Shown one piece after another: positions 19,894 through 59,728 of a stretch of DNA of 64,000 nt. A model generated the notes under the pieces. That model saw only the letters and a list, made by a program, of their open reading frames with translations. It was not told the DNA's origin and ran no database searches. The position numbers and the translations under genes were made by a program. The DNA lies in the NCBI GenBank assembly GCA_965218205.1, contig OZ244590.1, positions 840,857-904,856 of the forward strand. The letters are read 5' to 3'. Position 1 is the stretch's first letter; each line of letters begins with the position of its first letter. This DNA is from Spirochaetia bacterium. GTDB lineage: Bacteria > Spirochaetota > Spirochaetia > WTKD01 > G963693115.

Positions 19894-21107
19894 GTAGTTT
19901 TACCGTTTCGTGTGAACCCTTTTGATAAAATCAGTATACTGCAAAATTTCTATTATGCCAAGTGTGTAATGTTCGTTTAGTAAGGAAAGTATCAACAATA
20001 AGAGGGCGCAGAGTAAGTACACAAGGATCCAGAGAAGGACTTTTTTCTTTGAGCAACAAAGCAGGAGAGCCGTGTTTATAAGAGTTATGGCGTTGATGAT
20101 TAAAGCTATATTGATACTCAGCACTTTTGAGTAAAAAAGTACTGAGAGTAGGATTCTGCATTTTTGCATAGCATTCAGTTTCAATAAGTTTATGAGAAGC
20201 CTCGACATCAGAATTGTAAGTAGGAGAAGCATATGGGATAGTAGTATGGTGTGCCTCGTATGCTGCAAGAGAAGCAACAAAAGCAGATTGTTTAGTACTA
20301 AAAGCCCCTGAGATAAACTCAGAGCCATTATCAGTTTGAATAGTAATAGAGGAAGTATCAACGTGAAAAGAAGCAAGATGAGTAAGCAGATATTCAATAA
20401 ACAAAGCGGTATGAGAAGAGCTTTTTTGAGTGGCAAAGCATATCCATAAAGCCCCTGTAGCAACATCGCGTGCGGTAATTTGATACTTTGGGAGGCAAAA
20501 TTTGCGTAATGAGAAGTATAATTCAGGGATATCGGTAAGATATTTAATATCTACTTGTATTTTTTGACAAAACTGCAGCAGTTGCTTCCATAGGCGTGCC
20601 TCTTGTTTCTTTTCTGCTTTTTGCTTTTTATGTGTCTTAAAAAACCCCATCTTTCTCAGATGCTTAATGATAGTCTTTATGGAATAAGGAATGGCATACT
20701 CTCGTTTTATATGAGAGGCAATACATCGTTGATGATAGTGCTGTAATGTTTCGCATATCTCTTTGAGTTTTAACTGATAGTAAGGTATCATGGTATTAGG
20801 ATGTTCTACTGAAGCAGGACGCCTATCATAGAGCATAGCTTTCGGCTTCTCTTTGTATCTTTGCAGCCATTTGCGTACGGTATTAGGAGATATATGAAAG
20901 ATACGAGCAGTACTTTTGATACCGTGTTCTTTTGCAGAAAGTGCTATAGCTAAGCGTACTTTATGCAGTTCTTTTTGATTTCTTGTATTATAAAGTGTAG
21001 AGTATATCATGTACTCACCCCCTTTTTTTTTATTTTTGTTTGTTATTTCCATGATAGTATAATTACTATCATGGATTTTGGGGGGTCACACGAAACGGTA
21101 AAACTAC
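19894..21107 (-). mobile_element. IS481-family-like insertion sequence, copy A (1214 bp), with imperfect ~24-bp terminal inverted repeats (GTAGTTTTACCGTTTCGTGTGA...).
   Basis: Near-identical over 1214 bp to the element at 58515-59728 in opposite orientation. It has terminal inverted repeats and a single DDE/rve transposase gene. Confidence 0.85.
19931..21010 (-). CDS. IS481-family DDE transposase (rve integrase core with an N-terminal HTH), copy A.
   Basis: HTH (GIKSTARIFHISPNTVRKWLQRY), IQVDIKYL, TDNGSEFIS catalytic core. 359 aa from MIYSTLYN; the ORF track extends it to 21052 through an A9 tract. Confidence 0.85.
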   Translation of the reverse strand: MIYSTLYNTRNQKELHKVRLAIALSAKEHGIKSTARIFHISPNTVRKWLQRYKEKPKAMLYDRRPASVEHPNTMIPYYQLKLKEICETLQHYHQRCIASHIKREYAIPYSIKTIIKHLRKMGFFKTHKKQKAEKKQEARLWKQLLQFCQKIQVDIKYLTDIPELYFSLRKFCLPKYQITARDVATGALWICFATQKSSSHTALFIEYLLTHLASFHVDTSSITIQTDNGSEFISGAFSTKQSAFVASLAAYEAHHTTIPYASPTYNSDVEASHKLIETECYAKMQNPTLSTFLLKSAEYQYSFNHQRHNSYKHGSPALLLKEKSPSLDPCVLTLRPLIVDTFLTKRTLHTWHNRNFAVY

Positions 21108-21124
21108 AAATAAAGCCCTTTTTT
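21108..21124. repeat. 17-bp direct repeat (AAATAAAGCCCTTTTTT), right flank of IS copy A.
   Basis: Identical to 19877-19893. Confidence 0.85.
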
Positions 21125-21167
21125 TTATTGACTTTTATTGATTTTTATATTACTATAAAAAAGATAC

Positions 21168-21241
21168 GCCATCTTAGCTCAGCTGGCTAGAGCACGTGAC
21201 TTGTAATCTCGGGGTCGTCAGTTCGAATCTGACAGATGGCT
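21168..21241 (+). tRNA. tRNA-Thr (anticodon UGU).
   Basis: Acceptor GCCATCT/AGATGGC, D-arm GCTC...GAGC, anticodon loop CTTGTAA, T-arm GTCAG-TTCGAAT-CTGAC. Confidence 0.8.
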
Positions 21242-21246
21242 AAACA

Positions 21247-21328
21247 GGGGAGTTTCCCGAGCGGTCAAAGGGGGCAGACTGTAAATCTGTTGGCGTCGCC
21301 TTCGCAGGTTCGAATCCTGCACTCCCCA
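21247..21328 (+). tRNA. tRNA-Tyr (anticodon GUA), class II with a long variable arm.
   Basis: Acceptor GGGGAGT/ACTCCCC, anticodon stem GCAGA/TCTGT with loop CTGTAAA, long variable arm, T-arm GCAGG-TTCGAAT-CCTGC. Confidence 0.85.
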
Positions 21329-21604
21329 AAATGTATTGCAAATATATTGCGTAATGCTTGAATTATTGAAAGGAATGTGTAGATCTATAATAGAGAAGGA
21401 AATAAGTATCGCAGTCGTGTTTTGTATTACGTTAATAGTAAGCTCTTAGTTTTTATCTGTTTTTCTTTTAGTATTTATTGATTTTATATGATTGTAATGA
21501 TAGCATTAAATATGTGTGGTAGTATATATATGAGAGATATGTACTATAGTGTATAATGAAATTATACCAGAGGTATAATAAAATATATTATTTTTGTTAC
21601 AAGT

Positions 21605-22567
21605 ATGAAATTTTGTTGTAGAGGAGTCAGAGGATCTCGCACTGTTATCAATACAGTTGAAGACTATATGCATAATTTTGCACGATTCTTTCTGTCCCTT
21701 GATAAGCATGAGCTTCTTTCTCTTGGTGATGATTTAGAGTCAGTAAAGAAGCATTTCTACTCAGTGTCTTCGCGTGAAAAAATGCATTCAATACTAGGGT
21801 ATGGAAATAATACTCCTTGTGTTGAATTACAGTGTGATGATGAGGATACATCCTTTATTTTTGATCTTGGAAGTGGTGCTAGTAATATTGTTCTTCCTAA
21901 GCACTTAAAGTCGGTCCATATATTTTTTTCACATTTTCATTATGACCATATTATTGGTATTCCTTTTACAAAATTTTTACAAAGAAAAGATATTGATATT
22001 CATTTTTATAGTCCTGTTGAAAATTTTGAAAAAATAGTTCGTGATTATCTACAACCGCCCTTTTTTCCTATTGATTTAGATATAATTACAAGGTACAATA
22101 AAAAAGTATATTTTCATTCATTACATGATAAAAAGAGTATAAACATAGCAGGAAAAGATATAACATGGATGGAGCTTAATCATCCTGGTGTTTCTTATGC
22201 ATATAAAGTGAAAGATGGAAGTAAATCATTTTGTTATTTTACTGATGTAAATATAATAGATGACTATTTTTTTGCATCGGAAGAAAGAACCTTATTTTTA
22301 GATACTATTGATAGTATGATTATTGATGCATCACTTAATTTTGCTGATTCATTGCAGAAAAGATCGTGGGGACACACCAATATTTATGAAGGAGTAAATT
22401 TTGCAACAAAATGGGGAGTAAAAAAAATATATCTTTTTCATTATGATCCAGAAGATAGTGAGCTTGCAATTAATATAGGGTATCAAACTGCTCTTTGGTA
22501 TAAGAAAATGGTATCTTCACAGACAAAAATTTTTCTTTCTCATGAAGGACAGTGGGTTACCGTATAA
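21605..22567 (+). CDS. MBL-fold metallo-hydrolase (RNase Z/ElaC-like or a related phosphodiesterase).
   Basis: HxHxDH motif (FFSHFHYDHIIG) and the downstream His/Asp ligands typical of the metallo-beta-lactamase fold. Confidence 0.55.
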   Translation: MKFCCRGVRGSRTVINTVEDYMHNFARFFLSLDKHELLSLGDDLESVKKHFYSVSSREKMHSILGYGNNTPCVELQCDDEDTSFIFDLGSGASNIVLPKHLKSVHIFFSHFHYDHIIGIPFTKFLQRKDIDIHFYSPVENFEKIVRDYLQPPFFPIDLDIITRYNKKVYFHSLHDKKSINIAGKDITWMELNHPGVSYAYKVKDGSKSFCYFTDVNIIDDYFFASEERTLFLDTIDSMIIDASLNFADSLQKRSWGHTNIYEGVNFATKWGVKKIYLFHYDPEDSELAINIGYQTALWYKKMVSSQTKIFLSHEGQWVTV

Positions 22568-22816
22568 TTGAAAGTATCAGATTCTTCTTTAGAGTCAAAT
22601 ATGTATACTCTCTTATGTGATGAAAAAGAATTGAAGGAAATGTATGCTGTTCTTTGTTCTTTTGAAAATTTACCGAGTAGTTTATGGAATTTGCAAAAAA
22701 GAATAGGAAAGTTACTTACAAAGAAAATAACGGTACACGAATTGCTTACAATGAAGAGTAGGATGAAGCATCTATTCCTTGGGACATTGATTGAAAAAAA
22801 TGAGAAGTTAGATTGA
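22568..22816 (+). CDS. Hypothetical small protein (82 aa).
   Basis: ORF only; abuts dnaG. Confidence 0.3.
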   Translation: MKVSDSSLESNMYTLLCDEKELKEMYAVLCSFENLPSSLWNLQKRIGKLLTKKITVHELLTMKSRMKHLFLGTLIEKNEKLD

Positions 22817-24726
22817 TCATGAATTCATTATTAAACAAAGGCTTTATTTCTAAGCACATTATAGATGAGATTGAAAGAAAAATTGACATAGTATCAGTCA
22901 TTGGGCGTTATGTTGCACTTCATAAACGAGGAGGAAAATATTGGGGATTAAGTCCTTTCAAAGTAGAAAAGACTCCATCGTTTACTGTTGATCCTGTAAA
23001 GAAATTGTATTATTGTTTTAGTACACAGCAAGGAGGAAATGTATTTACTTTCATTAAATCTGTTGAAAATGTCAATTTTGTAAATGCTGTGCATATCCTA
23101 GCAAAAGAAGCAGGGGTTGTTATTCCTGATGTGCAACATGCTTCTACAGGGAAAGCCCAAGATGAAAATAGTGTCTATGAGAGAGTGCTTAAGATACTAT
23201 CGTATATAAGTGAGCAGAGTGTTGCTCTGTTATCTCATGATCCACAGGCTTATACGGTGAGAGAATATCTTCATAGAAGAAACATACATCAGGATAGTAT
23301 ACAACGCTTTCGTTTGGGATATGTTCCACCTAAAAGAGATTGGGCTTATCAGCTTTTGAAGCAAAAAGGGTTTAGTGATCATGAAATGGCATCTTCTGGG
23401 TTATTTAGTAAAAAATCTCCACAATACTGTCTTTTTACACAGCGATTGGTGTTTCCTATTATGAAATTATACGGACAAGTTGTTGCTTTTGGTGGGCGTT
23501 TATTAGAAGGAGAGGGACCTAAGTATCTTAATTCTCCACAAAGTAGCTTTTTTGAGAAGAAACAAATGGTGTATGGTTTGTATGAGGCTACACAAGGAAA
23601 ATATAATTTTGAAAAACTCTATGTAGTTGAGGGATATTTTGACGTTATTGCTATGCATCAAGCTGGTATCACTAATACAGTGGCTCCATTAGGTACTGCA
23701 TTTACTGTTGAGCATGCACGAATACTACGAAGGTTTACGGATACCATCGTACTGGTGTTTGATAACGATGAGGCAGGGAGACAAGCTGCATTGCGTGCAG
23801 CAACTATATGTGAGAGCATAGGGTTTCGAGCTATTCGTACAGTAGAGCTTCCAAAAAAAGATGTGGCTGATATTCTACAAGAGTATGGAGAAGGAGGCGT
23901 AAGAGATGAAGTACTTGAAGATAGGGATTTTTTTGATTATTATATTGATAGGTTACTTTTAGGACAGAACGAAAGTCAAGAGTATAGAGAAAAGGCTTTG
24001 TTAGAGATAAGTTCGTATATTTCTGGTGTGTCACTAGGGTATAGAAAGGAAATGTATCTTGCAAAGGTTACACAGTTATTTGGAGTAACAAAAGCTACAT
24101 TACAGGGGATTATGAAATATATGCCAAAACAAAGGGGGGATGGAAACAGTACTCATTATGAAGAACAGCATGATTCTACTGGGGTAACACAGCAGAAGCC
24201 GAGTAAAAAAGTTTCAAAAACAGCTGAATTATTGTTTGTAGCAGCATTAAGTTATAATCTTACAAATTATGAGGTGATAAGACGAGAGATAGCAGCAGAT
24301 GATTTACTTGATAGTAATGCAAAGCATGTGTATCTGAAAATAGAAGAATTATACAGAACAGATACTCTTAGTTTTACAGAGTTAATGGAACAGATTGACC
24401 AAGATGTGGCTACTACTATTCGTACCTTAGTGTTTAGCGGAGAAGTTTCAAAGTATGCTAATGTGTTAGTAACAGAGTTTATAGATAAGCATAAAATATT
24501 AAAATATCGTCATAGAAGCAATGAAATAAATAGGTTGCTTGCAATAAAAGAGCAACAGCTTGTTCAACAAAATGCTTTGGGTGATGGTAATGTTTTGTTA
24601 ATGAGAAAGGAGATGAAGGAACTTTTAGAAGAGAAAAAGTATATCAATACTATGCTGCTACACCTCAGTAAAAATAAAGGAAATGGCAGTAATAGTGATG
24701 ATGGAAAGACATATTCTGCGGTATAA
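22813..24726 (+). CDS. dnaG: DNA primase DnaG.
   Basis: Zinc-binding domain (GLSPFKVEKTPSFTV...YYCFSTQQGGNVFTF), TOPRIM (LYVVEGYFDVIAMHQAG...VFDNDEAG), and a C-terminal helicase-interaction region. Confidence 0.9.
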   Translation: MIMNSLLNKGFISKHIIDEIERKIDIVSVIGRYVALHKRGGKYWGLSPFKVEKTPSFTVDPVKKLYYCFSTQQGGNVFTFIKSVENVNFVNAVHILAKEAGVVIPDVQHASTGKAQDENSVYERVLKILSYISEQSVALLSHDPQAYTVREYLHRRNIHQDSIQRFRLGYVPPKRDWAYQLLKQKGFSDHEMASSGLFSKKSPQYCLFTQRLVFPIMKLYGQVVAFGGRLLEGEGPKYLNSPQSSFFEKKQMVYGLYEATQGKYNFEKLYVVEGYFDVIAMHQAGITNTVAPLGTAFTVEHARILRRFTDTIVLVFDNDEAGRQAALRAATICESIGFRAIRTVELPKKDVADILQEYGEGGVRDEVLEDRDFFDYYIDRLLLGQNESQEYREKALLEISSYISGVSLGYRKEMYLAKVTQLFGVTKATLQGIMKYMPKQRGDGNSTHYEEQHDSTGVTQQKPSKKVSKTAELLFVAALSYNLTNYEVIRREIAADDLLDSNAKHVYLKIEELYRTDTLSFTELMEQIDQDVATTIRTLVFSGEVSKYANVLVTEFIDKHKILKYRHRSNEINRLLAIKEQQLVQQNALGDGNVLLMRKEMKELLEEKKYINTMLLHLSKNKGNGSNSDDGKTYSAV

Positions 24727-24848
24727 TTTTTATTGTACTGATAGTTAAAAAAATAGCTAAAAAGCTAGTTAAAAAAACAGCAAAAAGATGGATTTACTAT
24801 AATAATATAGGTATATATATGCACTATAAACATAAAAAAGGATAGCGT

Positions 24849-26981
24849 ATGGAAAAAAAAGAGAAAAAAAGTAATATTACAAAGAAGAAGCAAAAAATGG
24901 ATGAAAATAAGAAAATAAAAAGCAGTATTACTGAAAAAAAGAACATTGCAGTGAGTGCTAAAAAGAATGTTCCTAAAAAAGAGGTAAAAAAGAAGAGTAG
25001 TACTACAGAGAAAAAAGGAGTAGATAAGGAAACAAAAATTTCTCGTAGTAGCAAAAAAAATGCTACTACTGTTGGTAAGAAAGCAAAAGTAAGTGTAAAG
25101 CTAAGTAATGTTGATGTACAGAAAGATGTACAGAAAAAGGAAAATGTACCTAAGAGAAAGAAGAAGTCATCTGAGTCTACTGCTGTCAAAAAGAAGGTTG
25201 CAGCTTCGGCAGAGGATATGCTTGGGACTGATATGGATGAGGCGAGTTATAGCGTACAATTACCAAAGGATATTCAAGATAGTGTTGATGAGTTGTTATT
25301 GGACGCTAATGTAAAGACACCAATATCCGTTGATAAGCTCATAGAAGGGGTGAGTAGTGATGAGATGATAAGCGCTAAAAATGTTAAGAATATTTTGAGT
25401 TATGTACAAAAAAGAGGTTTTACGGTAACGGACATTGATTTAGAAGGAAAGGATGGTTTGATAAGTGATGTAGATGAGAATGAGGATACCATTAATGATC
25501 CTGTTCGACTGTATTTGCGAGAAATAGGGAGAAAAAAATTATTAAGTGCAGAGGATGAAATAAATCTTGCACGTGAAATGAGGGAAGGTGAGCAAAAAAT
25601 TGCAAGTATCATAAAAACATCAGGATTATTTTTGTTAGAGCTAAACAATATAATGTTCAATATGAAAAAGACAAAAGATAATGATACCGAATCTGATACC
25701 TTACATAAATCTGAAAATGAAGAGTTCGATTCTAATATAGAAATTAAGCGTTTGTCTCAGCTGTATAGATCTATTATTAGTCAGATTGAAAATCCTTTGA
25801 CACAGTATTTACACTTAAAGAAAAAAGCGTTTATGAATGGGGAAAATTTTTTTGATGATCCTGCTATTCTTAAGCTGAGAGAAGGTATATTTAAGAAGAT
25901 TAAAAAGGTTGTAATTGATGCATCAGAAATACAACGGATAACTGATGTGTTTTTCTCTATCTTAAAGACTATTGAGGGATATAAAAAACGAAAGCAAACT
26001 ATATGTAATTTATTTCAAGTAAGAGACCCTAAGGAAGTACGAAAGTTTGGACGTAATTTAATTACCGCTACGCAGAGAAAAGAAATATATCAAAAGTTGG
26101 GGATTTCTATTTCTGATATAAAAAAGTATATACAAGAATTTAAGGAAGCTGATAAACGCTTGTCTCATGTAGAATACTATTATGATATGACATTACAAGA
26201 GATAAAGGATATGCTGTCTAAAATTGCAAGATTACACCTTCATCTTCAAGAGGTAAAGGAAAATCTTATTGAATCTAATTTGCGATTAGTGGTGAGTATT
26301 GCAAAAAAATATACAAATAGAGGACTTATGTTATTTGATCTTGTACAAGAAGGAAATCTTGGTTTAGTAAGAGCGGTGGAAAAATTTGAATACTTGAAAG
26401 GCTTTAAGTTTTCTACCTATGCAACATGGTGGATTCGACAAGCAATAACGAGAGCTATTTCTGATCAAGCGAGAACTATTCGTGTTCCTGTGCATATGAT
26501 AGAACAGATAAACAAGGTATCACGGGTAGAGAAAAAGCTCATGCAAGGATTAGGAAGGGAAGTGAGTGATGAAGAGATAGCAGAAAATTTAGGATGGGAA
26601 AAAAATAAAGTGAAGAATGTTCGTAATGTGTCGCGTGAGCCTATTTCTTTAGAGACTCCTGTTGGGGAAGAAGATGATTCGTTGTTGAGTGATTTTGTAG
26701 AAGATAAGAGTACTCATTCTCCAAATCAGCTTACATCGTTTTATTTATTGCAAGAACAGTTACGGGAAGTGCTGTCAACATTGCCTCATCGTGAACAACA
26801 GGTCATTCGTTTGCGTTTTGGGTTGGACGATGGATATCCTCTCACTTTGGAAGAGGTTGGGTTGCATTTTAATGTAACGCGTGAGCGTATTCGGCAAATA
26901 GAATCAAAGGCATTGAAACGTCTTCAAAATTCGCGATTTAGACTAAAATTACGTGACTATCTTGAAGAAGATGAGAAATAG
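24849..26981 (+). CDS. rpoD: RNA polymerase primary sigma factor RpoD with a ~230-aa lysine-rich N-terminal extension.
   Basis: Region 1.2 ([12 protein letters not shown]), region 2 ([54 protein letters not shown]), region 3, and region 4 ([28 protein letters not shown]). Confidence 0.9.
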
Positions 26982-26994
26982 TGTATAATAGATT

Positions 26995-27987
26995 ATGAGA
27001 GATACTATAGTGGAGGAAAGAGTGCTAAAAAATACATTAGAACAATTAAGAAAATTTCAGGAGATTCTTAACCAAAAATTTGAAGTTGAAAAACAGCTTC
27101 AGGAACTTCCTAAGGAAATTGAACGAAGAGATGAAATAGTCATTCGTATGAAAGAAAATTTCCTTGAGTTTAATGATAAGCGAAATGCTTTAAAGAAAGA
27201 AATCATTGTTAAGCGAGATGAGCTTGATAAAGTGGTAGAGAAAACGTCTAAACTTGAAAAAGAAGTGGGAAACGTAAGTTCTCAGCGAGATTATGAACAA
27301 ATTGATAGGGCTATTAAGGATAATAATGAGTCTGAGCAAACCTTACGTAGAGAAATACAAGTAGCTGAGAAAAAGATACATGATTTTCAAGAAGAGTTTA
27401 CGAATGCAGAAACATTGTTGCAAGAACAAGAGCTTTCTCTTATGAATATTAAGGATAAAATTGAACAAGATATTATAAAGTATGAAGTGCAGCTGAAAGA
27501 ACTGGAAGCAAAGAAACAAGAAGTGACAATGTATATGGAAGATAATCTAGTGTTTAAGTTTGAGCGCATTCTAAAGTCGAGGGAAGGTGATGGTATTGTT
27601 CCTATTCGGCAGAATGTATGTTATGGGTGTCATATGCTCCTTCCTCTTAAGATAGTAAATGAAGTATGTGAAGAACAGAGGGTAGTCACTTGTCCTTATT
27701 GTTCTAAAATTTTATTTTATGATGGAGATAGCGATAAAGAAGAAGTTGAGAACATAGAGATTGCAGGGTTGAAAGATCTTATTGATACTCAAGATATTTC
27801 TCTTGATGATTTTGATGAAGAGGACTATCATAGTTTTATGCAAAAAGATGATCTAGGATCTGATGAGTATATTCCTGCTCAAAATTTAGAAGAGATGGAA
27901 GATGAGATAGAGGATGATTTAGACGATGATGAGATAGAGGATGAATTAGGTGACGATATAGAGGATGAAGATTTAAGTGATGAGTAA
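26995..27987 (+). CDS. Zinc-ribbon coiled-coil protein (COG1579/DUF164-like) with an acidic C-terminal tail.
   Basis: Long coiled coil, then CYGCHMLLP...CPYCSKILF C4 zinc ribbon, then a D/E-rich tail. Confidence 0.6.
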   Translation: MRDTIVEERVLKNTLEQLRKFQEILNQKFEVEKQLQELPKEIERRDEIVIRMKENFLEFNDKRNALKKEIIVKRDELDKVVEKTSKLEKEVGNVSSQRDYEQIDRAIKDNNESEQTLRREIQVAEKKIHDFQEEFTNAETLLQEQELSLMNIKDKIEQDIIKYEVQLKELEAKKQEVTMYMEDNLVFKFERILKSREGDGIVPIRQNVCYGCHMLLPLKIVNEVCEEQRVVTCPYCSKILFYDGDSDKEEVENIEIAGLKDLIDTQDISLDDFDEEDYHSFMQKDDLGSDEYIPAQNLEEMEDEIEDDLDDDEIEDELGDDIEDEDLSDE

Positions 27988-28041
27988 TACTCTATATACA
28001 TAGCTGGTATTTGTATGTATAATAAGATGAGAACAATTATA

Positions 28042-28357
28042 GGTAGTAAGGGGTACTGCTACAATTATTTGTAGAGGAAAGTCCGGACTCCACAGAGAAA
28101 GTCACTGGGTAATGCCCAGCGAGCGTGAGCTTAGAGAAAGTGCCACAGAAAATATACCGCCAAAAGGTAAGGGTGAAAAGGTAAGGTAAGAGCTTACCGA
28201 TTTTATAGCAATATAAAATGCATGGTAAACCTTGACTGGAGCAAAACTAGAAAGTAAAGGATCTCTCGTCTTTATTTACAGGTAAGTTGCAAGAATACAG
28301 TACAATACTGTATCAAGATAAATGGTGCCCATTACAGAATCCGGCTTATGTACTGCC
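28042..28357 (+). ncRNA. rnpB: RNase P RNA (bacterial type A), compact.
   Basis: Conserved blocks: AGGAAAGTCCGGACTCCACAG (P4 5' strand), GGTAAGGGTGAAAAGGT...GGTAAGAGC, GGTAAACC...GGAGCAA, and ACAGAATCCGGCTTA (P4 3' strand). P1 GGTAGTA pairs with TACTGCC at the 3' end. Confidence 0.8.
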
Positions 28358-28444
28358 TATAGTTGTTTTTACTTTTTAAGATTTTCTTTATAGTGTATAA
28401 TCAATAGTGAGTGTAGATATATACTGTATAATTAGGGAGGGAAT

Positions 28445-29359: not shown

Positions 29360-29381
29360 GTAAAAGCACAAAGAGGGAGCA

Positions 29382-30401: not shown

Positions 30402-30423
30402 TAATGTTGTTATTGTATTAGTA

Positions 30424-31266: not shown

Positions 31267-31276
31267 AGAGAGTAGT

Positions 31277-45776: not shown

Positions 45777-45799
45777 TGTAAGGGCTGGATTATAAGCAT

Positions 45800-48139: not shown

Positions 48140-48224
48140 TGCATAATACATACATGGTATAGAGGGAATGTATGCGTTGCTATTGTAGTTTGTAGTGTTG
48201 TATATAGGGAGTTATATATAATGC

Positions 48225-51493: not shown

Positions 51494-51615
51494 ATTTCTA
51501 TTATAGAGCATTTTTGAATTATAGAAAAATAAAGGACTGGCATAGCAGAACCCGTGATTAATTTGAAATGCTATTTTCATAATTCCAAAAATAGAATAAA
51601 TGGTATAATAAGGCT

Positions 51616-51891
51616 ATGTCATATCAAGAAGAATTGAAAAAGGTAATAGAAGAATATCACAGTGCAAAGGAAGTATTTGAACGATTGCACAACAAAAAAT
51701 ATGAAGGCATATACAATCAAGAAGAATACGAAAAAGCAAGAGCAAAGGCATATGAAATGGCACAAAAAGCATATGACATAGGAAAAAAAGCATATGATGA
51801 AGGATATTATATGCATAAACAAGAATTTCAAGAAGTATTATCAGCATTAAAATCAGAATTAGATTATTATAATAATAGAAATAAGAAATAA
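51616..51891 (+). CDS. Hypothetical small coiled-coil protein (91 aa).
   Basis: ORF with a K/E/Y-rich helical repeat (KAYEMAQKAYDIGKKAYDEGYY); it heads the AT-rich cassette. Confidence 0.4.
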   Translation: MSYQEELKKVIEEYHSAKEVFERLHNKKYEGIYNQEEYEKARAKAYEMAQKAYDIGKKAYDEGYYMHKQEFQEVLSALKSELDYYNNRNKK

Positions 51892-51937
51892 TGTTTATAC
51901 TAATGCTAAAATATAAGAAATTATTTTAGGAGATTTA

Positions 51938-52954
51938 ATGAGTGAAATTAAAACACAAATTATAAAAGTAAATATTAAAAAATTATTTCTGGATGCAAAA
52001 AATCCACGTTTTCCTATTTCTTTTGAGACTAAATCTCAAGATGAAATATGGGAATGTATGAGTAGAGCTTTTAGGCTTGAAGAATTAGCTCTTTCAATGG
52101 TTGAGAATGGATATTTTGAAATTGAACCTATGGCAGTAATTCCAAAAAAAGAAATTTCCACTCAGAAAGAATATGATACATATAAAGTATCTGATAATGA
52201 GTTTATTGTTGTTGATGGTAATAGAAGGTTATCTGCTATAAGAGGGCTTATTGATAAAAAATTTCCTGATATAAAGATAACAGAGGATTTACAGAAACAA
52301 TTTGAAGATGGTGTTCCTGTACTATTTTATGCTAAGAGAGATGATATTTTGTCATTCTTAGGAGTGCATCATCTTGCTGGAGTAAGAAGTTGGGATATAT
52401 ATGATCGTGCAAGGTATATAGTGCATTTAAAAAGAGAAAAAGGTAAAACATTATCACAAATTCAAGATATGATAGGAAATGATACGAACTTACCAATAAA
52501 ATTGTATGTATCTTATCGACTGATTGAAATATTGAAAGAACATGATGATAATTTTGATGATAAGAGTGCCAAAGACAATTTCTCTTTTTTGACATTAGCA
52601 CTAAGTAAGCCAGAAATAAGAGCATATATCGGTTTACAAGCATGGCAAAAATTATCTGATAGTGAAGTTGAAAATCCCATTGCCTCTGAAAATCGAGAAA
52701 AATTAAGTAATTTATTCAGATACATATTTGACTATAATAGCGATACAAAACGTATAATAAGGGAATCTCGTGATATTGATACATTGTCTACAATTTTTTC
52801 TTCTGATGAAGGGATAAATCGTTTACTAGAACATAAAGATATTGATGAGGCATATGAAATAAGTATAGATGAAACTTGGCCTCTAAAAAATATAATGAAT
52901 AGTCTTTCTCTACTATATTTTTATAGTTCAGGAGGAAATAAAAAAATTATATGA
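51938..52954 (+). CDS. ParB/Srx-fold (DUF262-like) domain protein.
   Basis: NIKKLFLDAKNPRF and FIVVDGNRRLSAIRGL resemble the ParB N-terminal domain and the DGQQR motif of DUF262 (the GmrSD N-domain). The coding DNA is very AT-rich. Confidence 0.55.
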   Translation: MSEIKTQIIKVNIKKLFLDAKNPRFPISFETKSQDEIWECMSRAFRLEELALSMVENGYFEIEPMAVIPKKEISTQKEYDTYKVSDNEFIVVDGNRRLSAIRGLIDKKFPDIKITEDLQKQFEDGVPVLFYAKRDDILSFLGVHHLAGVRSWDIYDRARYIVHLKREKGKTLSQIQDMIGNDTNLPIKLYVSYRLIEILKEHDDNFDDKSAKDNFSFLTLALSKPEIRAYIGLQAWQKLSDSEVENPIASENREKLSNLFRYIFDYNSDTKRIIRESRDIDTLSTIFSSDEGINRLLEHKDIDEAYEISIDETWPLKNIMNSLSLLYFYSSGGNKKII

Positions 52955-52958
52955 ATGG

Positions 52959-53768
52959 ATGAACATGAAAAACAATGCAAAAGCAAAAGCAAAACTAGAA
53001 AAAGAATTATTACAGAAAAAGAGAATATCTAAGCAAGATATAGTAGCTTATTGGAGAGATTTAGGAAATGAAGATGATAGTATTGATAGTGAGGTTGATG
53101 ATGATATTAATAGATATAAGGAATTGTTTGATATTTACGGAGAAACTGTTTTTACATGGGATGATGAAACAAAGGCTATATCTCTCCATAAAGATTTTAA
53201 AGCAATAGAAGAATATCTATATTGCTTAGCATGTCATTTATTAACAGAAGAAGAAAAGGAGAAGGCTATAGGGAAAAATAAATTTTGTTTTGAAAAAATT
53301 GTTGGAGAGGTATTAAAAGTATTATTCGGAAAAGATTCACATTATGAGATTACTGATGCTCATAATACCCCCTCAATTAAAGATATAGCAGAAAAAATGA
53401 ATGAAGAATTTGTACAAGAAATCGAAAAAGGAAAAGATGCTGCTTGTGATATTGTATTTTGGAAATGTATTGAAAAATCTTTAGGGAGTAATATAATAGT
53501 ATTGGCTCAATGTAAGACAGGAAATAATTGGAAAGACGGTAAAAGTGTATATGTTGATTTTTGGAGAACTTTGATAATTTTTTCTATACCTCCAATAAAA
53601 GCATTTGCTATTACTGATTTAGTAGTAGACAGAAAAGATATAAGAAGATGTACAAAACAAAGAGGTTTATTTTTGGATAGGGCAAGTATTATAAAGATTC
53701 TCTCAAATCAGGATAATGAGGGATTACAGAATATTCGGGCAGATATATCTCAATTAGAGTTAGGATAA
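52959..53768 (+). CDS. Putative PD-(D/E)xK restriction-endonuclease-like protein (Mrr-cat-like C-terminal domain).
   Basis: The C-terminal AACDIVFWK...NIIVLAQCKTGNNW matches the D...(Q/E)xK catalytic arrangement of Mrr_cat (DGGIDii...vQcK). The start is 4 nt after the upstream stop. Confidence 0.5.
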   Translation: MNMKNNAKAKAKLEKELLQKKRISKQDIVAYWRDLGNEDDSIDSEVDDDINRYKELFDIYGETVFTWDDETKAISLHKDFKAIEEYLYCLACHLLTEEEKEKAIGKNKFCFEKIVGEVLKVLFGKDSHYEITDAHNTPSIKDIAEKMNEEFVQEIEKGKDAACDIVFWKCIEKSLGSNIIVLAQCKTGNNWKDGKSVYVDFWRTLIIFSIPPIKAFAITDLVVDRKDIRRCTKQRGLFLDRASIIKILSNQDNEGLQNIRADISQLELG

Positions 53769-53832
53769 AGATTGAAAAAAGAAATGTAAATACATTGAGC
53801 CTGCACTCTCTAGTAACTATCTATACGGATAT

Positions 53833-54111
53833 TTATGACTCAATAGCTTCATCTAAGCGAGAGATGAGTTTAGATGCAGAATAGGCAGTATCATTGCTCA
53901 GTTCTACATTGAATTTTTTCTCATCAAGCAATTCATGGGAGAGGAGCAGAGATACCATAATAGATAATTTAAGAGGATCAGAACAATCAATTTCGCTTTG
54001 TATGCTCTGCATTCTTGCTTCAATTATTTCACATAATTGCTGTATGTAAGCACTGCTTTCGTCACTATGTAAGATAAAGGAAGTTCCAAATAAATTAACT
54101 CTTGTTTTCAT
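53833..54111 (-). CDS. zapA: Cell-division protein ZapA.
   Basis: A 92-aa protein with the ZapA pattern (VNLFGTSFIL...YIQQLCEIIEARMQ...LSIMVSLLLSHEL). Confidence 0.55.
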   Translation of the reverse strand: MKTRVNLFGTSFILHSDESSAYIQQLCEIIEARMQSIQSEIDCSDPLKLSIMVSLLLSHELLDEKKFNVELSNDTAYSASKLISRLDEAIES

Positions 54112-54130
54112 GCTTGTTCCAGTGAAATTG

Positions 54131-54841
54131 CTAGAGAATTTCTAGTTTAGTATGTTCTTCCTCTTTTCTGTCTGAGAGAGGATCAAAGTCGCTTGCAAAA
54201 TCAATTTCATCAATGTTTATATCATTATCATTGTGAAACATATTATCTTCATCATGAAAAGAATCACCAATATCTAGCGAGGTATCGCCCATAGATGAAT
54301 TAAGTGAATCATTCATAGTATCATCTGATACAAAAATTGTGTCACCTTCATCGTGTGATGAGCCTGAAGCAACAGCACTGTTTGTAGAAGTATGCTCTGC
54401 ACTCTGTGTAGGAGTATTCGTATCCGTATTGCTACGAGATGTTGGCACTGTGTTATCGGTAGGGGTATGACTTTCTTTCGCTTTTGTACTGGAATTGTTA
54501 CTGTTGTCTACGGTAGCAGAGGGCTGTGTTTGTGTGCCTGTAAAATCTACGCCATTTTGAAGCTCTTCAATAGTTTCAAAGTTGCTTATGGCATTTACGA
54601 CACTTTTTTCGAGATTAGATTGCTCTTTTTGGGCAGAATCTACTAGCTTTTCTAATTCTAGTACACGTTCTTCGTATTCGTCAAGTTGTCCCTGAATCGT
54701 TTCTTCATACTCTTGAAACTTTTTCTGCATTTGTTCTTTCTCTAAGGATATTTGTGTTATTCTTTGTTTTAGTTGTTGAATAAGATCAATAGCAGCTTCC
54801 ACTTTTGTTTCTAGCTTAAAGATAATTTGCTTAGGACTCAT
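54131..54841 (-). CDS. Coiled-coil protein with a Ser/Thr/Asn-rich linker and an acidic C-terminus (hypothetical, possibly division-associated).
   Basis: N-terminal coiled coil (QLKQRITQISLEKEQMQKKFQEYEETIQGQLDEYEERVLELEK) immediately upstream of zapA on the same strand. Confidence 0.4.
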   Translation of the reverse strand: MSPKQIIFKLETKVEAAIDLIQQLKQRITQISLEKEQMQKKFQEYEETIQGQLDEYEERVLELEKLVDSAQKEQSNLEKSVVNAISNFETIEELQNGVDFTGTQTQPSATVDNSNNSSTKAKESHTPTDNTVPTSRSNTDTNTPTQSAEHTSTNSAVASGSSHDEGDTIFVSDDTMNDSLNSSMGDTSLDIGDSFHDEDNMFHNDNDINIDEIDFASDFDPLSDRKEEEHTKLEIL

Positions 54842-54873
54842 AATTCCCCCTTAATTTTCCTATAAAAATATTG

Positions 54874-55218
54874 TTAGGCTATGAGTTCAATAATTTTGTT
54901 GAACTCACTACTATTTGTAACGGCAAGATTAGAGAGTACTTTACGATTTATTTGTATATTTTTTTGGGCTAGCCTATGTATAAAGTCTGAATAACGAAGT
55001 CCTTTTGCACGAACGGCTGCTGAAATTCTTGCTATCCATAGCCGTCTGAACTCTCGTTTTTTGTTTTTTCTATCTCGATATGCGTATAATAACGCCTTAG
55101 ACACAGCGTCTTTGGTACTACGATAGAGGTTTTTACGTCTTCCCCAATATCCCTTTGCTAATTTCTGTAATTTTTTACGATGAGTTTTTCGAATACTTCC
55201 GTTTGTTGCTCGTGGCAT
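54874..55218 (-). CDS. rplT: 50S ribosomal protein L20.
   Basis: MPRATNGSIRKTHRKKLQKLAKGYWGRRKNLYR... is a canonical L20 sequence. Confidence 0.9.
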   Translation of the reverse strand: MPRATNGSIRKTHRKKLQKLAKGYWGRRKNLYRSTKDAVSKALLYAYRDRKNKKREFRRLWIARISAAVRAKGLRYSDFIHRLAQKNIQINRKVLSNLAVTNSSEFNKIIELIA

Positions 55219-55263
55219 GTACTTCCTCCGATACTAAATAAGTTTGGTTATGTTGGTAGCTTT

Positions 55264-55458
55264 TTAATTATTAAGCATCAATGAAACTCGCTTTGTTTCA
55301 CTTGATGATAAAATACTAGGCTTACGTAAATTTCTTTTTCTTTTCGTACTTTTCTTTGTCAATATATGTCGTAATCCCTGTCTTTTGTACTTAATTTTAC
55401 CAGACGCAGTCTTTGAGAATCGTTTAGCTACACTTTTAACTGTTTTTTGTTTTGGCAT
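55264..55458 (-). CDS. rpmI: 50S ribosomal protein L35.
   Basis: [36 protein letters not shown] is a canonical L35 sequence. Confidence 0.9.
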
Positions 55459-55629
55459 ATTACTCCTAATGTATATTAGTTTATATAACTTTTTATAGTA
55501 TACTAACTTTTGAAAAATTAAGTCAACTGTAGAATACAGATTTTTGTATTATTGTTATATTGTAAAGAAATTTAGTATATCTATAGTGGATGTGATACAA
55601 TAGTAATAGTATAAATAGGAGGAAAACAT

Positions 55630-58044
55630 ATGGCAGAAAGTAAAAGCATAGGACAATTACAAAAAGACGCAGAGCAATTTTTTAAGGATAAAAAATATGA
55701 TAAATGTATAGAGGTTTGTACAAAGATTATTAGTAGGGATGATGCAACAGAAGCTGATAAAGCAAGTGCGTATTTTAACAGAGGAAAAGCGAAAGATAGA
55801 CAAGGAAAGTATGAAGAAGCGATAGCTGATTATGATAAAGCGATAAAGTTATATCATTTTTTTGTTCCATATAAAACTCCTTATACTCTAGCTGATTACG
55901 ACAAAGTGATAAAGTTATATCCAAAATATGTAAATGCATACATCAACAGAGGAAACACAAAAGATAGGCAAGGAAAATATGAAGAAGCAATAAAAGATTA
56001 TGACAAAGCAATAGAGCTAGATCCACAAAATGCAATAGCATACAGTAATAGAGGACTTATGGAAGATAGGCAAAGAAGGTATAGAAAAGCGATAGCTTAT
56101 TACACTACAGCGATAGAGAAAGATCCAAAATATGTAAATGCATACATCAACAGAGGAATTACGAAACGGAAACGAAAAAAATATAAAGAAGCGATAGCTG
56201 ATTACACTACAGCGATAGAGCTAGATCCAAAATATGTAAATGCATACATCAACAGAGGAAATGCAAAATATAGTCAAGGAAAATATGAAGAAGCAATAAA
56301 AGATTATAACAAAGCAATAAAGCTAGATGAACAAAATGAAACAGCATACAACAACAGAGGCAATGCAAAATATAGTCAAAAAAATTATAAAGAAGCGATA
56401 AAAGATTATGATAAAGCGATAGATTTAGATTCAAAATATACAACAGCATATATAAACGGAGGAAATGCACAATATAGGCAAGAAGATTATAAGAAGGCGG
56501 AGGATTACTACACTAGAGCGATAAATACAAATAAAAAAAATGCAACATTATACAACAGCAGAGGAAATGCGAAATATAAACAAAAAAATTATAAAAAAGC
56601 GATAAAAGAATATGACAAAGCGATAAAGAAAAATCCAAAATATGTAGAAGCATATTACAATAAAGGTTATACAAATTTTATGCTAGGAAATTATGAGGAG
56701 GCGATAAAAGATTACGATGAAGCGATAGGTATAGATGGAAAAAAAGCAGAAGCACACTATTATAAAGGAACTGCGAATTTTATGTTAGGAAATTATGAGG
56801 AAGCGATAGATGATTATGATAAAGCGAAAAAGTGTAAAGAAGATTTTGCATCAGCAAAAGCCGATTATTCCATATTAAAATATTTATTATATACTAAAAG
56901 TGATGATTCAAAAGTATCAAAGGTATCAAAGTTTATTGAGAACTTGAATAAGGCCTTACGAATAGGTATAGCTGAAAAGTATAAGGAATCTAATATTAGT
57001 GATAATAAAAAATATTGTAATAAAAAATATATATTTTGTATATTTCAAAATGTAGTAAAGATATTAGATGAGTTAAAAGTAAAAGTAAATAAGAAGAGCA
57101 ATAAAGAAGAGTATCTTTCGCATACTACTCGTTTATCTGTATTGAAACAGCTTTTACCCATACCACCCACTCAAAAAGAAGATCTGTCCTCCCAAAGTGT
57201 AGCTTCAATATTTCGATTGTACCATATTGTGTATTCAAATGATCCGACTGAAGGAAAGATTCTCTTTAAGAAATTAAGTATTGACGATGAAACAGAAATC
57301 CCTTTCTATGTAATGATAGCGAGCTTTTCTAAAGGTGTCATCTCAGGTGATGACTTCTCAGAATTAGATACTATTCCTATATGGCACATGTATGGAGATG
57401 ATGCAAAAGGGATATCTCTATTATTTAAGACAACAGATATAGCCTCTGATGAAACAAGACATATTGGTAACCCTGTACAGAATTTGAATATATTAGAACA
57501 AGATCATACACAGGATATTGATGGTTCTGAAGTTAAGAGAGTATTGGAAAATATACACCAGATACAAAATATAGATGACAATCCTCTTTTGAAGCCAATA
57601 CTCTATAAGGTTCATTATACTGATGTAAAAAAACCTCTAAAGGATAGCGACAAAGGAAAAATAGTTGGTTATCTCAGAGATATACAAAATAGGCTTAAAG
57701 AGATAGAAAAAAAGGAAGACGAGAAGATATACAAAAAAACTTTAGAATTATTATCTGGATTGAGGTATCTTATTAAGGATAAGAGATATGAATATGAAAA
57801 TGAATATCGCTTAGTGTGTTTTCTTACACTTGATAGTATACAATATGATGAAAAAGATCCTGAAAACGATGCAATAAACCGTATGTATGTAGAAGAGGAT
57901 ATCATAGCAAAATTGGATAGCATAATAGTAGGAGCTAAAGTTCCTCCAGCAAAAGTGCTTGAAATAAAATATTTACTAAGAAAGTGTGATAAGACTAAAG
58001 ACAGAAAAATTAAAGTAATTCCAAGCAGTATTCCCTACCGCTAA
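55630..58044 (+). CDS. TPR-repeat protein fused to a DUF2971-like C-terminal domain.
   Basis: About 12 tandem 34-aa TPR units (AYINRGNAKYSQGKYEEAIKDYDKAIELDPKYVNA), then a C-terminal domain with YSNDPTEG and IWHMYGDDAKG resembling the DUF2971 N-D-P-x-E and M-W-s-h-Y motifs. Confidence 0.55.
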   Translation: MAESKSIGQLQKDAEQFFKDKKYDKCIEVCTKIISRDDATEADKASAYFNRGKAKDRQGKYEEAIADYDKAIKLYHFFVPYKTPYTLADYDKVIKLYPKYVNAYINRGNTKDRQGKYEEAIKDYDKAIELDPQNAIAYSNRGLMEDRQRRYRKAIAYYTTAIEKDPKYVNAYINRGITKRKRKKYKEAIADYTTAIELDPKYVNAYINRGNAKYSQGKYEEAIKDYNKAIKLDEQNETAYNNRGNAKYSQKNYKEAIKDYDKAIDLDSKYTTAYINGGNAQYRQEDYKKAEDYYTRAINTNKKNATLYNSRGNAKYKQKNYKKAIKEYDKAIKKNPKYVEAYYNKGYTNFMLGNYEEAIKDYDEAIGIDGKKAEAHYYKGTANFMLGNYEEAIDDYDKAKKCKEDFASAKADYSILKYLLYTKSDDSKVSKVSKFIENLNKALRIGIAEKYKESNISDNKKYCNKKYIFCIFQNVVKILDELKVKVNKKSNKEEYLSHTTRLSVLKQLLPIPPTQKEDLSSQSVASIFRLYHIVYSNDPTEGKILFKKLSIDDETEIPFYVMIASFSKGVISGDDFSELDTIPIWHMYGDDAKGISLLFKTTDIASDETRHIGNPVQNLNILEQDHTQDIDGSEVKRVLENIHQIQNIDDNPLLKPILYKVHYTDVKKPLKDSDKGKIVGYLRDIQNRLKEIEKKEDEKIYKKTLELLSGLRYLIKDKRYEYENEYRLVCFLTLDSIQYDEKDPENDAINRMYVEEDIIAKLDSIIVGAKVPPAKVLEIKYLLRKCDKTKDRKIKVIPSSIPYR
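55690..56860 (+). repeat. Near-identical tandem ~102-bp DNA repeats (TPR units) within the CDS.
   Basis: Blocks such as CCAAAATATGTAAATGCATACATCAACAGAGGAAA recur at ~55921, ~56121 and ~56221 with very few mismatches. Confidence 0.8.
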
Positions 58045-58498
58045 ACAGTAGAGAGTACGCAGTATATATACTAATCAAGCTGGTATTTTCATAGCATATC
58101 TCTACTGAAGTCTTTGTTTTTTTTGTTTATTTATACATTTGCATAAGACAGGCACAAGACGAAAAAACAAAATATGAACAACTATAGGTGCAAGTATTAT
58201 TAGTAAAAACCACCAGTTAAAGTCAGATAAGAAAGAAGAAATCAATAAGGACAGAAAAAAACCAATAAAAAGTTCAGCAGTAAAATATTCTCTCTTTTTT
58301 ATTACTGTTTGGTATACTTTATAGGTTTTTAGTTTTTCATATTCTTCTTTAAAGCATTTAAAATGGCAGAAGCCATAGAATAGTTGTTCTTTTTCTATCT
58401 TTTTTATAACTGCAAATTTTGCATCATTTAAACGCTTATATGAATGTACATTGCAAAGCCATAGTATAGAAACACATAATCCAAGAATACTTACGAAA

Positions 58499-58514
58499 AT
58501 AATAGATAGAGTTG
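58499..58514. repeat. 16-bp direct repeat (ATAATAGATAGAGTTG), left flank of IS copy B; identical copy at 59729-59744.
   Basis: Exact sequence identity at both IS boundaries. The repeat lies inside the disrupted ORF, consistent with a target-site duplication. Confidence 0.85.
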
Positions 58515-59728
58515 TGTACTTTTACCATCTCGTATGAACCCCCAAAATCCATGACAGTAATTATACTATCATGGAAATAACAAACAAAAATAAAAAAAAG
58601 GGGGTGAGTACATGATATACTCTACACTTTATAATACAAGAAATCAAAAAGAATTGCATAAAGTACGCTTAGCTATAGCACTTTCTGCAAAAGAACACGG
58701 CATCAAAAGTACTGCTCGTATCTTTCATATATCTCCTAATACCGTACGCAAATGGCTGCAAAGATACAAAGAGAAGCCGAAAGCTATGCTCTATGATAGG
58801 CGTCCTGCTTCAGTAGAACATCCTAATACCATGATACCTTACTATCAGTTAAAACTCAAAGAGATATGCGAAACATTACAGCACTATCATCAACGATGTA
58901 TTGCCTCTCATATACAACGAGAGTATGCCATTCCTTATTCCATAAAGACTATCATTAAGCATCTGAGAAAGATGGGGTTTTTTAAGACACATAAAAAGCG
59001 AAAAGCAGAAAAGAAACAAGAGGCTCGCCTATGGAAACAACTGCTGCAGTTTTGTCAAAAAATACAAGTAGATATTAAATATCTTACCGATATCCCTGAA
59101 TTATACTTCTCATTACGCAAGTTTTGCCTCCCAAAGTATCAAATTACCGCACGCGATGTCGCAACAGGGGCTTTATGGATATGCTTTGCTACTCAAAAAA
59201 GCTCTTCTCATACCGCTTTGTTTATTGAATATCTGCTTACTCATCTTGCTTCTTTTCACGTTGATACTTCCTCTATTACTATTCAAACTGATAATGGCTC
59301 TGAGTTTATCTCAGGGGCTTTTAGTACTAAACAGTCTGCTTTTGTTGCTTCTCTTGCAGCATACGAGGCACACCATACTACTATCCCATATGCTTCTCCT
59401 ACTTACAATTCTGATGTCGAGGCTTCTCATAAACTTATTGAAACTGAATGCTATGCAAAAATGCAGAATCCTACTCTCAGTACTTTTTTACTCAAAAGTG
59501 CTGAGTATCAATATAGCTTTAATCATCAACGCCATAACTCTTATAAACACGGCTCTCCTGCTTTGTTGCTCAAAGAAAAAAGTCCTTCTCTGGATCCTTG
59601 TGTACTTACTCTGCGACCTCTTATTGTTGATACTTTCCTTACTAAACGAACATTACACACTTGGCATAATAGAAATTTTGCAGTATACTGATTTTATCAA
59701 AAGGGTTCACACGAAACGGTAAAACTCC
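58515..59728 (+). mobile_element. IS481-family-like insertion sequence, copy B (1214 bp), inverted relative to copy A.
   Basis: Same length as copy A and near-identical to it, differing by a few SNPs and an A8 versus A9 tract. Terminal inverted repeats GTACTTTTACCATCTCGTATGAACCCCC / GGGTTCACACGAAACGGTAAAACTCC. Confidence 0.9.
58612..59691 (+). CDS. IS481-family DDE transposase, copy B (359 aa).
   Basis: Identical to the copy A transposase from MIYSTLYN onward, except for two substitutions (IQREY versus IKREY; KKRKAEKK versus KKQKAEKK). Confidence 0.9.
   Translation: MIYSTLYNTRNQKELHKVRLAIALSAKEHGIKSTARIFHISPNTVRKWLQRYKEKPKAMLYDRRPASVEHPNTMIPYYQLKLKEICETLQHYHQRCIASHIQREYAIPYSIKTIIKHLRKMGFFKTHKKRKAEKKQEARLWKQLLQFCQKIQVDIKYLTDIPELYFSLRKFCLPKYQITARDVATGALWICFATQKSSSHTALFIEYLLTHLASFHVDTSSITIQTDNGSEFISGAFSTKQSAFVASLAAYEAHHTTIPYASPTYNSDVEASHKLIETECYAKMQNPTLSTFLLKSAEYQYSFNHQRHNSYKHGSPALLLKEKSPSLDPCVLTLRPLIVDTFLTKRTLHTWHNRNFAVY

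Follow-up and report, generated by a model that had tools for sequence, protein, structure and literature searches.

We conclude that the two insertion sequence (IS) copies lying in inverted orientation in the window (the whole 64,000-nucleotide stretch of DNA analyzed) are very probably two simple insertions, recent and independent of each other, of a single DDE insertion sequence present in multiple copies, and that the segment between them is ancestral, neither inverted nor delivered by the IS. We draw this conclusion because each copy has its own target-site duplication (TSD) and because excision recreates the empty sites seen in relatives. The copies, A and B, and their parts are as follows.

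19893..21108, minus strand: IS copy A, 1216 bp with TGT...ACA termini, found by repeat search and alignment; absent at the orthologous site of the related MAG
58515..59729, plus strand: IS copy B, 1215 bp with TGT...CCA termini; absent at the orthologous site in both the MAG (L010) and contig L012
21083..21108, minus strand: left inverted repeat (IRL) of A, TGTAGTTTTACCGTTTCGTGTGACCC, matching A's own right repeat at 25 of 26 positions
19893..19918, minus strand: right inverted repeat (IRR) of A
19931..21010, minus strand: transposase gene of A, 359 aa, intact, starting at an ATG preceded by the RBS GGGGGTGA
58612..59691, plus strand: transposase gene of B, 359 aa, intact, two residues from A (K102Q and Q130R)

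In the window, the repeat search returned inverted arms at 19887-21036 and 58586-59735 (1150 nt, 99% identity) and a second inverted pair at 21019-21108 and 58515-58604 (90 nt, 92%). Alignment of the copies gave bounds of 19894-21107 for A and 58515-59728 for B, identical to those of the first-pass annotation, or 19893-21108 and 58515-59729 when the terminal T and A of TGT...ACA are counted as part of the IS. The annotation had described two near-identical inverted copies separated by a few SNPs and one homopolymer length. Repeat search and alignment both bear out the near identity, at 98.36% (98.4%) over 1216 alignment columns, and the homopolymer difference is real (A9 versus A8 at 21031/58591), but the few SNPs prove to be 19 substitutions. 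The longest perfect blocks shared by A and B measure 281, 213, 143 and 110 bp. Six of the substitutions lie in the left end of the IS, and the first 24 bp of its left inverted repeat account for five of these. Decay of copy B was considered as their cause and rejected because the left repeat of B fits the consensus of the MAG copies; it is the left repeat of A that is derived, and it now resembles A's own right repeat. Elsewhere in the window, a search for solo IS ends and miniature derivatives gave none.

Both transposase reading frames are intact because the homopolymer indel precedes both the RBS and the ATG, within the 5' UTR; a longer 373-aa frame that opens at 21052 in copy A is a product of the A9 run in this UTR. 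Within the ORF, the copies differ by 10 synonymous and two non-synonymous changes, which indicates that the copies diverged while selection acted on the transposase, rather than through decay where they now sit. The protein of copy A is identical to entry P0122 of a public collection and that of copy B to P0121, both from a contig of 2,360,799 bp. This host contig carries at least nine distinct full-length variants of the transposase, 1-5 aa apart, together with disrupted copies, and among these variants the nearest to A is not B, nor is the nearest to B A. The pair is part of a within-genome burst of the IS on the host contig.

Each copy is flanked by a perfect direct repeat of its own.

19878..19892, strand not applicable: TSD of A, outer, AAATAAAGCCCTTTTTT; 19877-19893 with the ambiguous terminal bases
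21109..21123, strand not applicable: TSD of A, inner; 21108-21124 with the ambiguous bases
58500..58514, strand not applicable: TSD of B, inner, ATAATAGATAGAGTTG; perfect repeat over 58499-58514
59730..59744, strand not applicable: TSD of B, outer; 59729-59744 with the ambiguous base

The exact direct repeats span 17 bp at A and 16 bp at B, or 15 bp at each when the IS is taken to end in TGT/ACA. Five more copies of the IS in the related MAG each have their own duplication of 14-16 bp at the same termini, which in those copies read TGT...CCA as in copy B, bringing the independent insertions to seven, with duplications of 14-17 bp. The element is thus about 1215 bp long, encodes a single 359-aa transposase with a helix-turn-helix (HTH) and an RNase-H fold, ends in TGT...ACA with 26-bp inverted repeats, and inserts through staggered cuts made about 15 bp apart.

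For the empty sites, we compared the window with three related metagenome assemblies. The main relative is a Spirochaetia MAG, close to the window at 95-97% nucleotide identity overall and represented by contig ERZ25073769:ctg130872 (217 kb), which aligns to window positions 18,316-64,000 as one monotonic, co-oriented series at 92-97% nucleotide identity over contig positions 150,984-194,209; the comparison left out about 1.1 kb of the contig (162,458-163,583, within mreC-mrdA). The exceptions are two hypervariable regions of 72-87% identity, namely the second dynamin-like gene and window positions 52.9-58.5 kb. The IS is absent from the MAG at both site A and site B. When IS A and one copy of its TSD are removed from the window, the remaining sequence aligns to the MAG base for base, and the target occurs there once. 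A second relative, represented by a 34-kb contig (L012/L014), is colinear with the window over 36.2-64 kb and lacks IS B. A conserved 25-mer beside site A had no match in the JGI metagenome contigs scanned. Across the three related assemblies, the orientation is constant and the IS is missing from a site, the finding that the first-pass annotation had itself named as telling against its proposal.

This agreement also bears on the possibility that assembly from long metagenomic reads misjoined sequence at a repeat and so produced either one copy of the IS or the block's present orientation. The source seems to be a single-contig, metagenome-derived genome of 2.36 Mb, and IS repeats are classic points of misassembly. 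Nevertheless, we regard such an artefact as highly improbable: the copies differ at 20 positions and were therefore resolved separately, each has a precise TSD, excision gives back the sequence of the relative exactly, and order and orientation agree with relatives assembled independently from other samples.

The segment enclosed by the copies is the following.

21109..58514, plus strand: segment between the copies, 37.4 kb, colinear and co-oriented with MAG contig positions 152,533-~190,000

It encodes tRNA-Thr/Tyr, dnaG, rpoD, rnpB, mreBC(D), mrdA, rodA, a Panacea-domain gene, three dynamin-like GTPases, fliS, aroDE, aspS, aroB, a sigma-54 activator, pyk, zapA, rplT (L20), rpmI (L35) and a TPR-DUF2971 gene. 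The gene content previously listed for the segment (dnaG, rpoD, rnpB, the mre/mrd/rodA genes, aroDE, aspS, aroB, pyk and rplT-rpmI) is thus verified, with mreD a weak match (Pfam E 0.0015, below the cut-off). The genes that might be called defence-like, dynamin/Leo-like GTPases and a PD-Lambda-5_A-like protein, have weak matches in the defence library and occupy the same place in the IS-free relative.

Such genes, between two copies of one IS whose outer ends are both of the IRR type with good terminal repeats, could suggest a composite transposon that brought in the 37-kb block with its defence-like cargo, and the first-pass annotation had described a composite-transposon-like structure carrying the defence-like loci. 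As in Tn5/Tn10-type composite transposons, a segment is flanked by two inverted copies of one IS. Unlike in those elements, the outer ends share no TSD: the flanks are not duplicates of each other (AAATAAAGCCC... at A, TAATAGATAGAGTTG at B), and a separate duplication flanks each IS. Between the copies lies core chromosome (dnaG, rpoD, rnpB, mre/mrd and rplT); a relative with no IS at either end has it at the same place, beside the same neighbors and with the defence-like genes likewise present. We therefore reject the composite transposon as the origin of the block, the chance of which we consider negligible. By the preferred reading of two independent insertions, the segment is ordinary chromosome that was ancestrally present and has kept its original orientation.

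The pair could alternatively act, or have acted, as the ends of a RecA-dependent invertible 37-kb segment that flips in the population or marks an inverted lineage. Inverted repeats of 1.2 kb at 98.4% identity are an adequate substrate, with a longest perfect block of 281 bp making A and B a possible target for homologous recombination that appears unrealised, and inversions flanked by inverted IS481 copies are well documented in Bordetella pertussis (PMC4888882); none is seen here. An odd number of exchanges would split the matched TSDs, whereas both are intact, and the IS-free relative has the segment in the same orientation. Neither GC skew nor gene-strand bias breaks at either IS boundary, with plus-strand skew positive through both and, in the MAG, downstream as well. 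None of the signs expected of a realised inversion (swapped TSD halves, an orientation opposite to that of relatives, a break in skew or strand bias) was found. Those inversions that persist in B. pertussis are mostly centered on the origin or terminus (PMC4888882), whereas both copies here lie in one replichore, and the pair is only one of many that could be formed from at least nine copies. Genes on the plus strand account for 79% of the coding base pairs of the segment. An inversion product would remain within one replichore and would probably place about 79% of this coding DNA head-on to replication; with most of its genes head-on, inversion should be counter-selected. We thus retain the earlier suggestion of a RecA substrate in principle only, and judge it very unlikely that this segment inverts or has done so.

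An even number of inversions leaves the arrangement unchanged. Separately, a fall in GC skew after 58 kb was examined as an origin or terminus beside copy B. We rejected this because the dip is local and coincides with IS B on the plus strand and with ftsZ-like and xerC genes, and because skew in the MAG is positive again downstream. As a worked example, the locus illustrates that matched TSDs and an IS-free relative can exclude an IS-mediated inversion or a composite transposon without recourse to reads.

With regard to family, the transposase finds its best NCBIfam match in IS481 (NF033577; E 7.6e-31), scoring 107.7 bits, which does not reach the cut-off of 224; the IS3 (49 bits) and IS630 (47 bits) models lie far below. 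The Pfam HTH_23/HTH_28 models match above their cut-offs, and rve matches below its own (E 2.8e-5). No relative with a solved structure was found for the transposase by sequence. Among 114 homologs, the conserved catalytic residues are D154, D227 and E270, and the residue at E+7 is Glu277 in the motif NSDVEASHKLIE, conserved in 99%. The interval from D154 to D227 contains two further conserved aspartates, D160 (99%) and D182 (≥80%). At 43 aa, the stretch from D227 to E270 is longer than the D-E spacing of roughly 35 aa in IS3 and IS481 transposases.

The element shares with the IS481 family a single-ORF DDE transposase that joins an N-terminal HTH to an rve-type core without a programmed frameshift, TGT...ACA termini, and an IS length near 1.0-1.3 kb. 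Its 15-bp TSD falls inside the 2-15 bp reported for the family (PMC10045372), as in the minority of members that duplicate about 15 bp. It differs in scoring below the curated cut-off and in having Glu at E+7, where the family has Lys/Arg. With the ISTde1 subgroup of IS1202, whose type is from Treponema denticola, it shares a spirochaete host, a short transposase without a C-terminal domain, the two extra aspartates, ends in TGT with inverted repeats of about 26 bp, and TSDs of 15-17 bp. Its D-E spacing of 43 aa may reflect the 5-10 aa insertion that sets this subgroup apart from the others between the second Asp and the Glu. However, the Gln at E+7 that defines that family is Glu here, in a comparison made by description, and at 1215 bp and 359 aa the element is shorter than any listed member of the subgroup (IS of 1327-1747 bp, transposases of 394-507 aa; PMC10132070, Table 7). 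On these sequence features, we place the element in the IS481/IS1202 supergroup. The earlier label "IS481-like" agrees with the best HMM, but formal membership does not follow (107.7 against 224 bits, and Glu at E+7), and the term is acceptable only loosely.

To IS taxonomy it contributes a clade of short elements that duplicate 15 bp and match neither the signature of IS481 nor that of IS1202 in full. The Glu at E+7, the two extra aspartates, the 15-bp TSDs and the minimal 359-aa protein have led us to speculate, tentatively and with the balance against it, that the clade of more than 100 homologs could be a distinct unnamed lineage linking IS481 with the ISTde1 branch of IS1202; as a separate speculation of the same standing, recombination between A and B might occasionally flip the segment, at low frequency, in the natural population. 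The locus is otherwise a case of ordinary recent transposition, of little importance beyond annotation. It shows that the IS has been active recently in an uncultured spirochaete lineage, where two sister genomes have each had a burst of their own and one gene has been knocked out.

The two insertions differ in what they struck, and the features beside them are the following.

21128..21156, plus strand: promoter-like site TTGACT-17-TACTAT upstream of tRNA-Thr (21168), by consensus match only
58102..58514, minus strand: C-terminal part of the gene split by copy B
59745..60000, minus strand: N-terminal part of the split gene; the listed ORF at 59707-60000 runs from this part into the IS

Site A is intergenic, with an ADP-ribosylglycohydrolase gene on one side and the tRNA-Thr/Tyr promoter on the other. 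The promoter-like site at 21128 begins 4 bp past the TSD and is spared by IS A, and its sequence is conserved in the MAG. Site B lies inside a small membrane-protein gene, which is split by the IS. Deleting IS B and one copy of its TSD in silico recovers an intact 222-aa ORF, the product of which is 70% identical to a 231-aa PF24838 (8xMP) protein of the second relative (L012) and 52% identical to that of a 184-aa MAG gene.

A repeat search of the 64-kb window, which has a GC content of 34%, returned one long inverted repeat pair, with 37.4 kb between the two IS copies. Alignment reproduced exactly the coordinates proposed for them in the first-pass annotation, and a further T and A complete the TGT...ACA termini.

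19894-21107 (19893-21108 with the completed termini), minus strand, IS copy A
58515-59728 (58515-59729 with the completed termini), plus strand, IS copy B

The copies are nearly identical, as that annotation had it, at 98.36% over 1216 columns, but they are separated by more than the "few SNPs" it described: we count 19 substitutions, six of them in the left end of the IS, plus a single homopolymer indel (A9/A8). Uninterrupted identity extends over at most 281 bp, the next longest blocks being 213, 143 and 110 bp. Because the homopolymer lies upstream of a strong ribosome-binding site (GGGGGTGA) and the ATG, both copies encode an intact 359-aa transposase. The two proteins differ at 2 residues, with 10 synonymous and 2 non-synonymous differences in the ORF.

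Perfect direct repeats flank each copy separately, AAATAAAGCCCTTTTTT (17 bp) at copy A and ATAATAGATAGAGTTG (16 bp) at copy B; each is 15 bp once the TGT/ACA termini are assigned to the IS. In a scan of one genome per species, a 94%-identical IS turned up in five copies in the Spirochaetia metagenome genome CBDDCA01 (hereafter the MAG), a close relative with 96% nucleotide identity to window 1509-4399 at one locus. All five have the same termini as the window copies and their own 14-16-bp duplications, so a target-site duplication of ~15 bp is a property of the element. Exchange between inverted IS copies would pair a flank of one site with a flank of the other at both copies, and the repeats there would be mismatched. 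Since the repeats at each copy still match, the second insertion has been followed by no net inversion in the present arrangement. No relation exists between the two outer flanks of the pair, and therefore the pair and the DNA inside it did not arrive as a single insertion. This is positive evidence against both a past inversion and a composite transposon.

Comparison with relatives bears on the same question. Using cluster look-up of orthologous proteins and exact-protein retrieval, we recovered 141.6-201.9 kb of MAG contig ERZ25073769:ctg130872, and the comparison covers all but ~1.1 kb. By BLAST, window 18,316-64,000 maps to 150,984-194,209 of this contig as a single monotonic, co-oriented series at 92-97% identity, with hypervariable stretches at 39,496-40,015 (second dynamin-like gene, 82%) and 52.9-58.5 kb (from a 269-aa ORF through the TPR gene to the insertion site of copy B, 72-87%). 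No IS is present at either insertion site in this contig. With IS A and one duplication copy removed, the window aligns base for base to the MAG, where the target occurs once. The same removal at IS B gives alignment across the junction with both the MAG and a 34-kb contig of a second relative (L012/L014), itself colinear with window 36.2-64 kb, and brings back an unbroken 222-aa ORF, a homolog of the small membrane-protein gene of the relatives (PF24838 8xMP in the L012 annotation). The pair remains a potential recombination substrate as first proposed, but its matched duplications and the co-oriented MAG region, empty of IS at both sites, argue against inversion itself; the composite-transposon-like structure is contradicted by the unrelated outer flanks and separate duplications. 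Copies A and B are two recent IS insertions of an ordinary kind, in a core part of the chromosome.

With a more distant relative, L011, the window has in common only a DUF3276 and ADP-ribosylglycohydrolase pair, whose neighbours differ on either side. At L011 10001-12747, compared with window 18487-21604, patatin, SMC-like and other genes come after this pair in place of tRNA-Thr/Tyr and dnaG, so synteny between lineages also breaks at the intergenic target of IS A. L011 10001-12747 showed no IS remnant.

The terminal repeats of copy A (19893-19918 and 21083-21108) are nearly perfect (25/26). Compared with the ends of copy B (58515-58540 and 59704-59729) and of the five MAG loci (L001-L005; 2904-2930 and 4092-4118), the left repeat of A has right-repeat-type bases at three positions (5, 13 and 15), and its right tip is ACA as opposed to CCA in copy B and all MAG copies. 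From sequence, each end of copy A appears homogenised with the other; copy B retains the asymmetric ends of the MAG copies. Five of the seven 15-bp targets (window 19878-19892 and 58500-58514; L001-L005 around 2889-2903 and 4119-4133) are A-rich in the 5' half and T-rich in the 3' half, with G/C at the centre (e.g., AATAAAGTGCTTTTA and AAAATAGCTTTTAT); in a window of 34% GC, this may reflect a preferred target that is AT-rich and quasi-palindromic.

Both window transposases are present in a public protein collection, on a 2,360,799-bp contig. Their 90% cluster holds at least nine distinct full-length variants from that contig, 1-5 aa apart, plus disrupted ORFs, two or three in number; variants from the MAG group separately, at a distance of 21-25 aa. 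These close variants, together with the 10:2 synonymous excess, indicate that the element is active and has recently undergone a burst in the host genome. The nearest variant of A is not B, nor vice versa; the two derive from slightly different source copies. Many other pairs of copies could recombine as well, and nothing singles this one out. One MAG copy of this 1.2-kb IS adjoins the homolog of window 1509, a position without the IS in the window itself; the MAG sequence beyond that copy has no match to the window. At the window's left edge is another IS, of unrelated type (75-836, plus strand; IS1595-family transposase, Pfam E 4.7e-34), with a 78%-nucleotide-identical copy in the 34-kb contig (L012 2987-3810).

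In Pfam, the transposase matches HTH domains, with the rve core sub-threshold. Its best NCBIfam model is IS481, with a score of 107.7 bits where the cut-off is 224. The residue seven after the catalytic Glu (E+7; residues 270-277, 59419-59442 in copy B) is Glu in 99% of 114 homologs (motif NSDVEASHKLIE), in contrast to Lys/Arg in IS3/IS481 and the family-defining Gln in IS1202. The element resembles the ISTde1 subgroup of the IS1202 family in its 15-bp duplications, TGT ends, spirochaete host, two additional conserved Asp residues (D160 and D182) and 43-aa D-E spacing, but element and protein are both shorter than those of all listed members. Because a minority of IS481 members share ~15-bp duplications and IS1202 is phylogenetically nested within IS481 (PMC10045372), we place the element no more precisely than in the IS481/IS1202 supergroup. 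"IS481-like" thus holds as a loose label; the evidence falls short of formal membership of either family.

The housekeeping genes reported between the copies are present, mreD weakly.

Features of the 37.4-kb segment
In the segment: tRNA-Thr, tRNA-Tyr, class A RNase P RNA
In the segment: dnaG, rpoD, mreB, mreC, mrdA, rodA
In the segment: mreD (weak match)
In the segment: aroD-aroE fusion, non-discriminating aspS, aroB, pyk
In the segment: L20, L35
Within 35121-35928: SocA/Panacea antitoxin-domain protein, 152 aa (Pfam E 6e-13)
36100-41814: three tandem dynamin-like GTPase genes (565, 728 and 594 aa)
51938-52954: PDC-M38A / PD-Lambda-5_A-like protein (E 8e-20 and 2e-14), with a 269-aa partner
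55630-58044: TPR-DUF2971 protein with 102-nt TPR units

The defence-like content is thin, made up of the dynamin-like GTPases, the PDC-M38A / PD-Lambda-5_A-like protein and the antitoxin-like Panacea-domain protein. The first and third dynamin-like GTPases have weak LeoA/LeoBC matches (E 1e-6 to 2e-8), and a defence-library search of the TPR-DUF2971 protein gave no match. The Panacea-domain gene overlaps a 123-aa ORF without assigned function, both kept in the MAG, and the two may form a toxin-antitoxin pair. The middle dynamin-like gene has ~82% identity to the MAG over part of its length; the third contains 21-nt (7-aa) tandem repeats (41310-41629), and its protein measures 594, 499 and 441 aa across relatives. 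The TPR unit number likewise differs (804, 696 and 666 aa), and 51938-58044 as a whole is far more diverged from the MAG (72-87%) than its surroundings (95-97%).

Plus-strand GC skew is positive over 1-58 kb, with no change of sign at copy A; the dip after 58 kb is local, as skew in the MAG is positive again downstream. On the plus strand lie 26 of the 34 segment genes (79% of coding bp). Given this continuous skew and strand bias, both copies lie in one replichore. After an inversion, replication would meet rpoD, dnaG, rnpB, the tRNAs and the cell-shape operon head-on. In B. pertussis, the IS481-flanked inversions that survive mostly have the origin or terminus as their axis of symmetry (PMC4888882); from this record and general gene-strand bias, inversion of the segment is expected to be disfavoured. 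Beyond copy B, a 536-aa tubulin/FtsZ-family protein (60114-61724) has a GTPase domain that begins only at residue 93. Skew falls locally to about 0 and GC rises to 37-39% across its gene and the xerC/D-like and dprA genes that come next.
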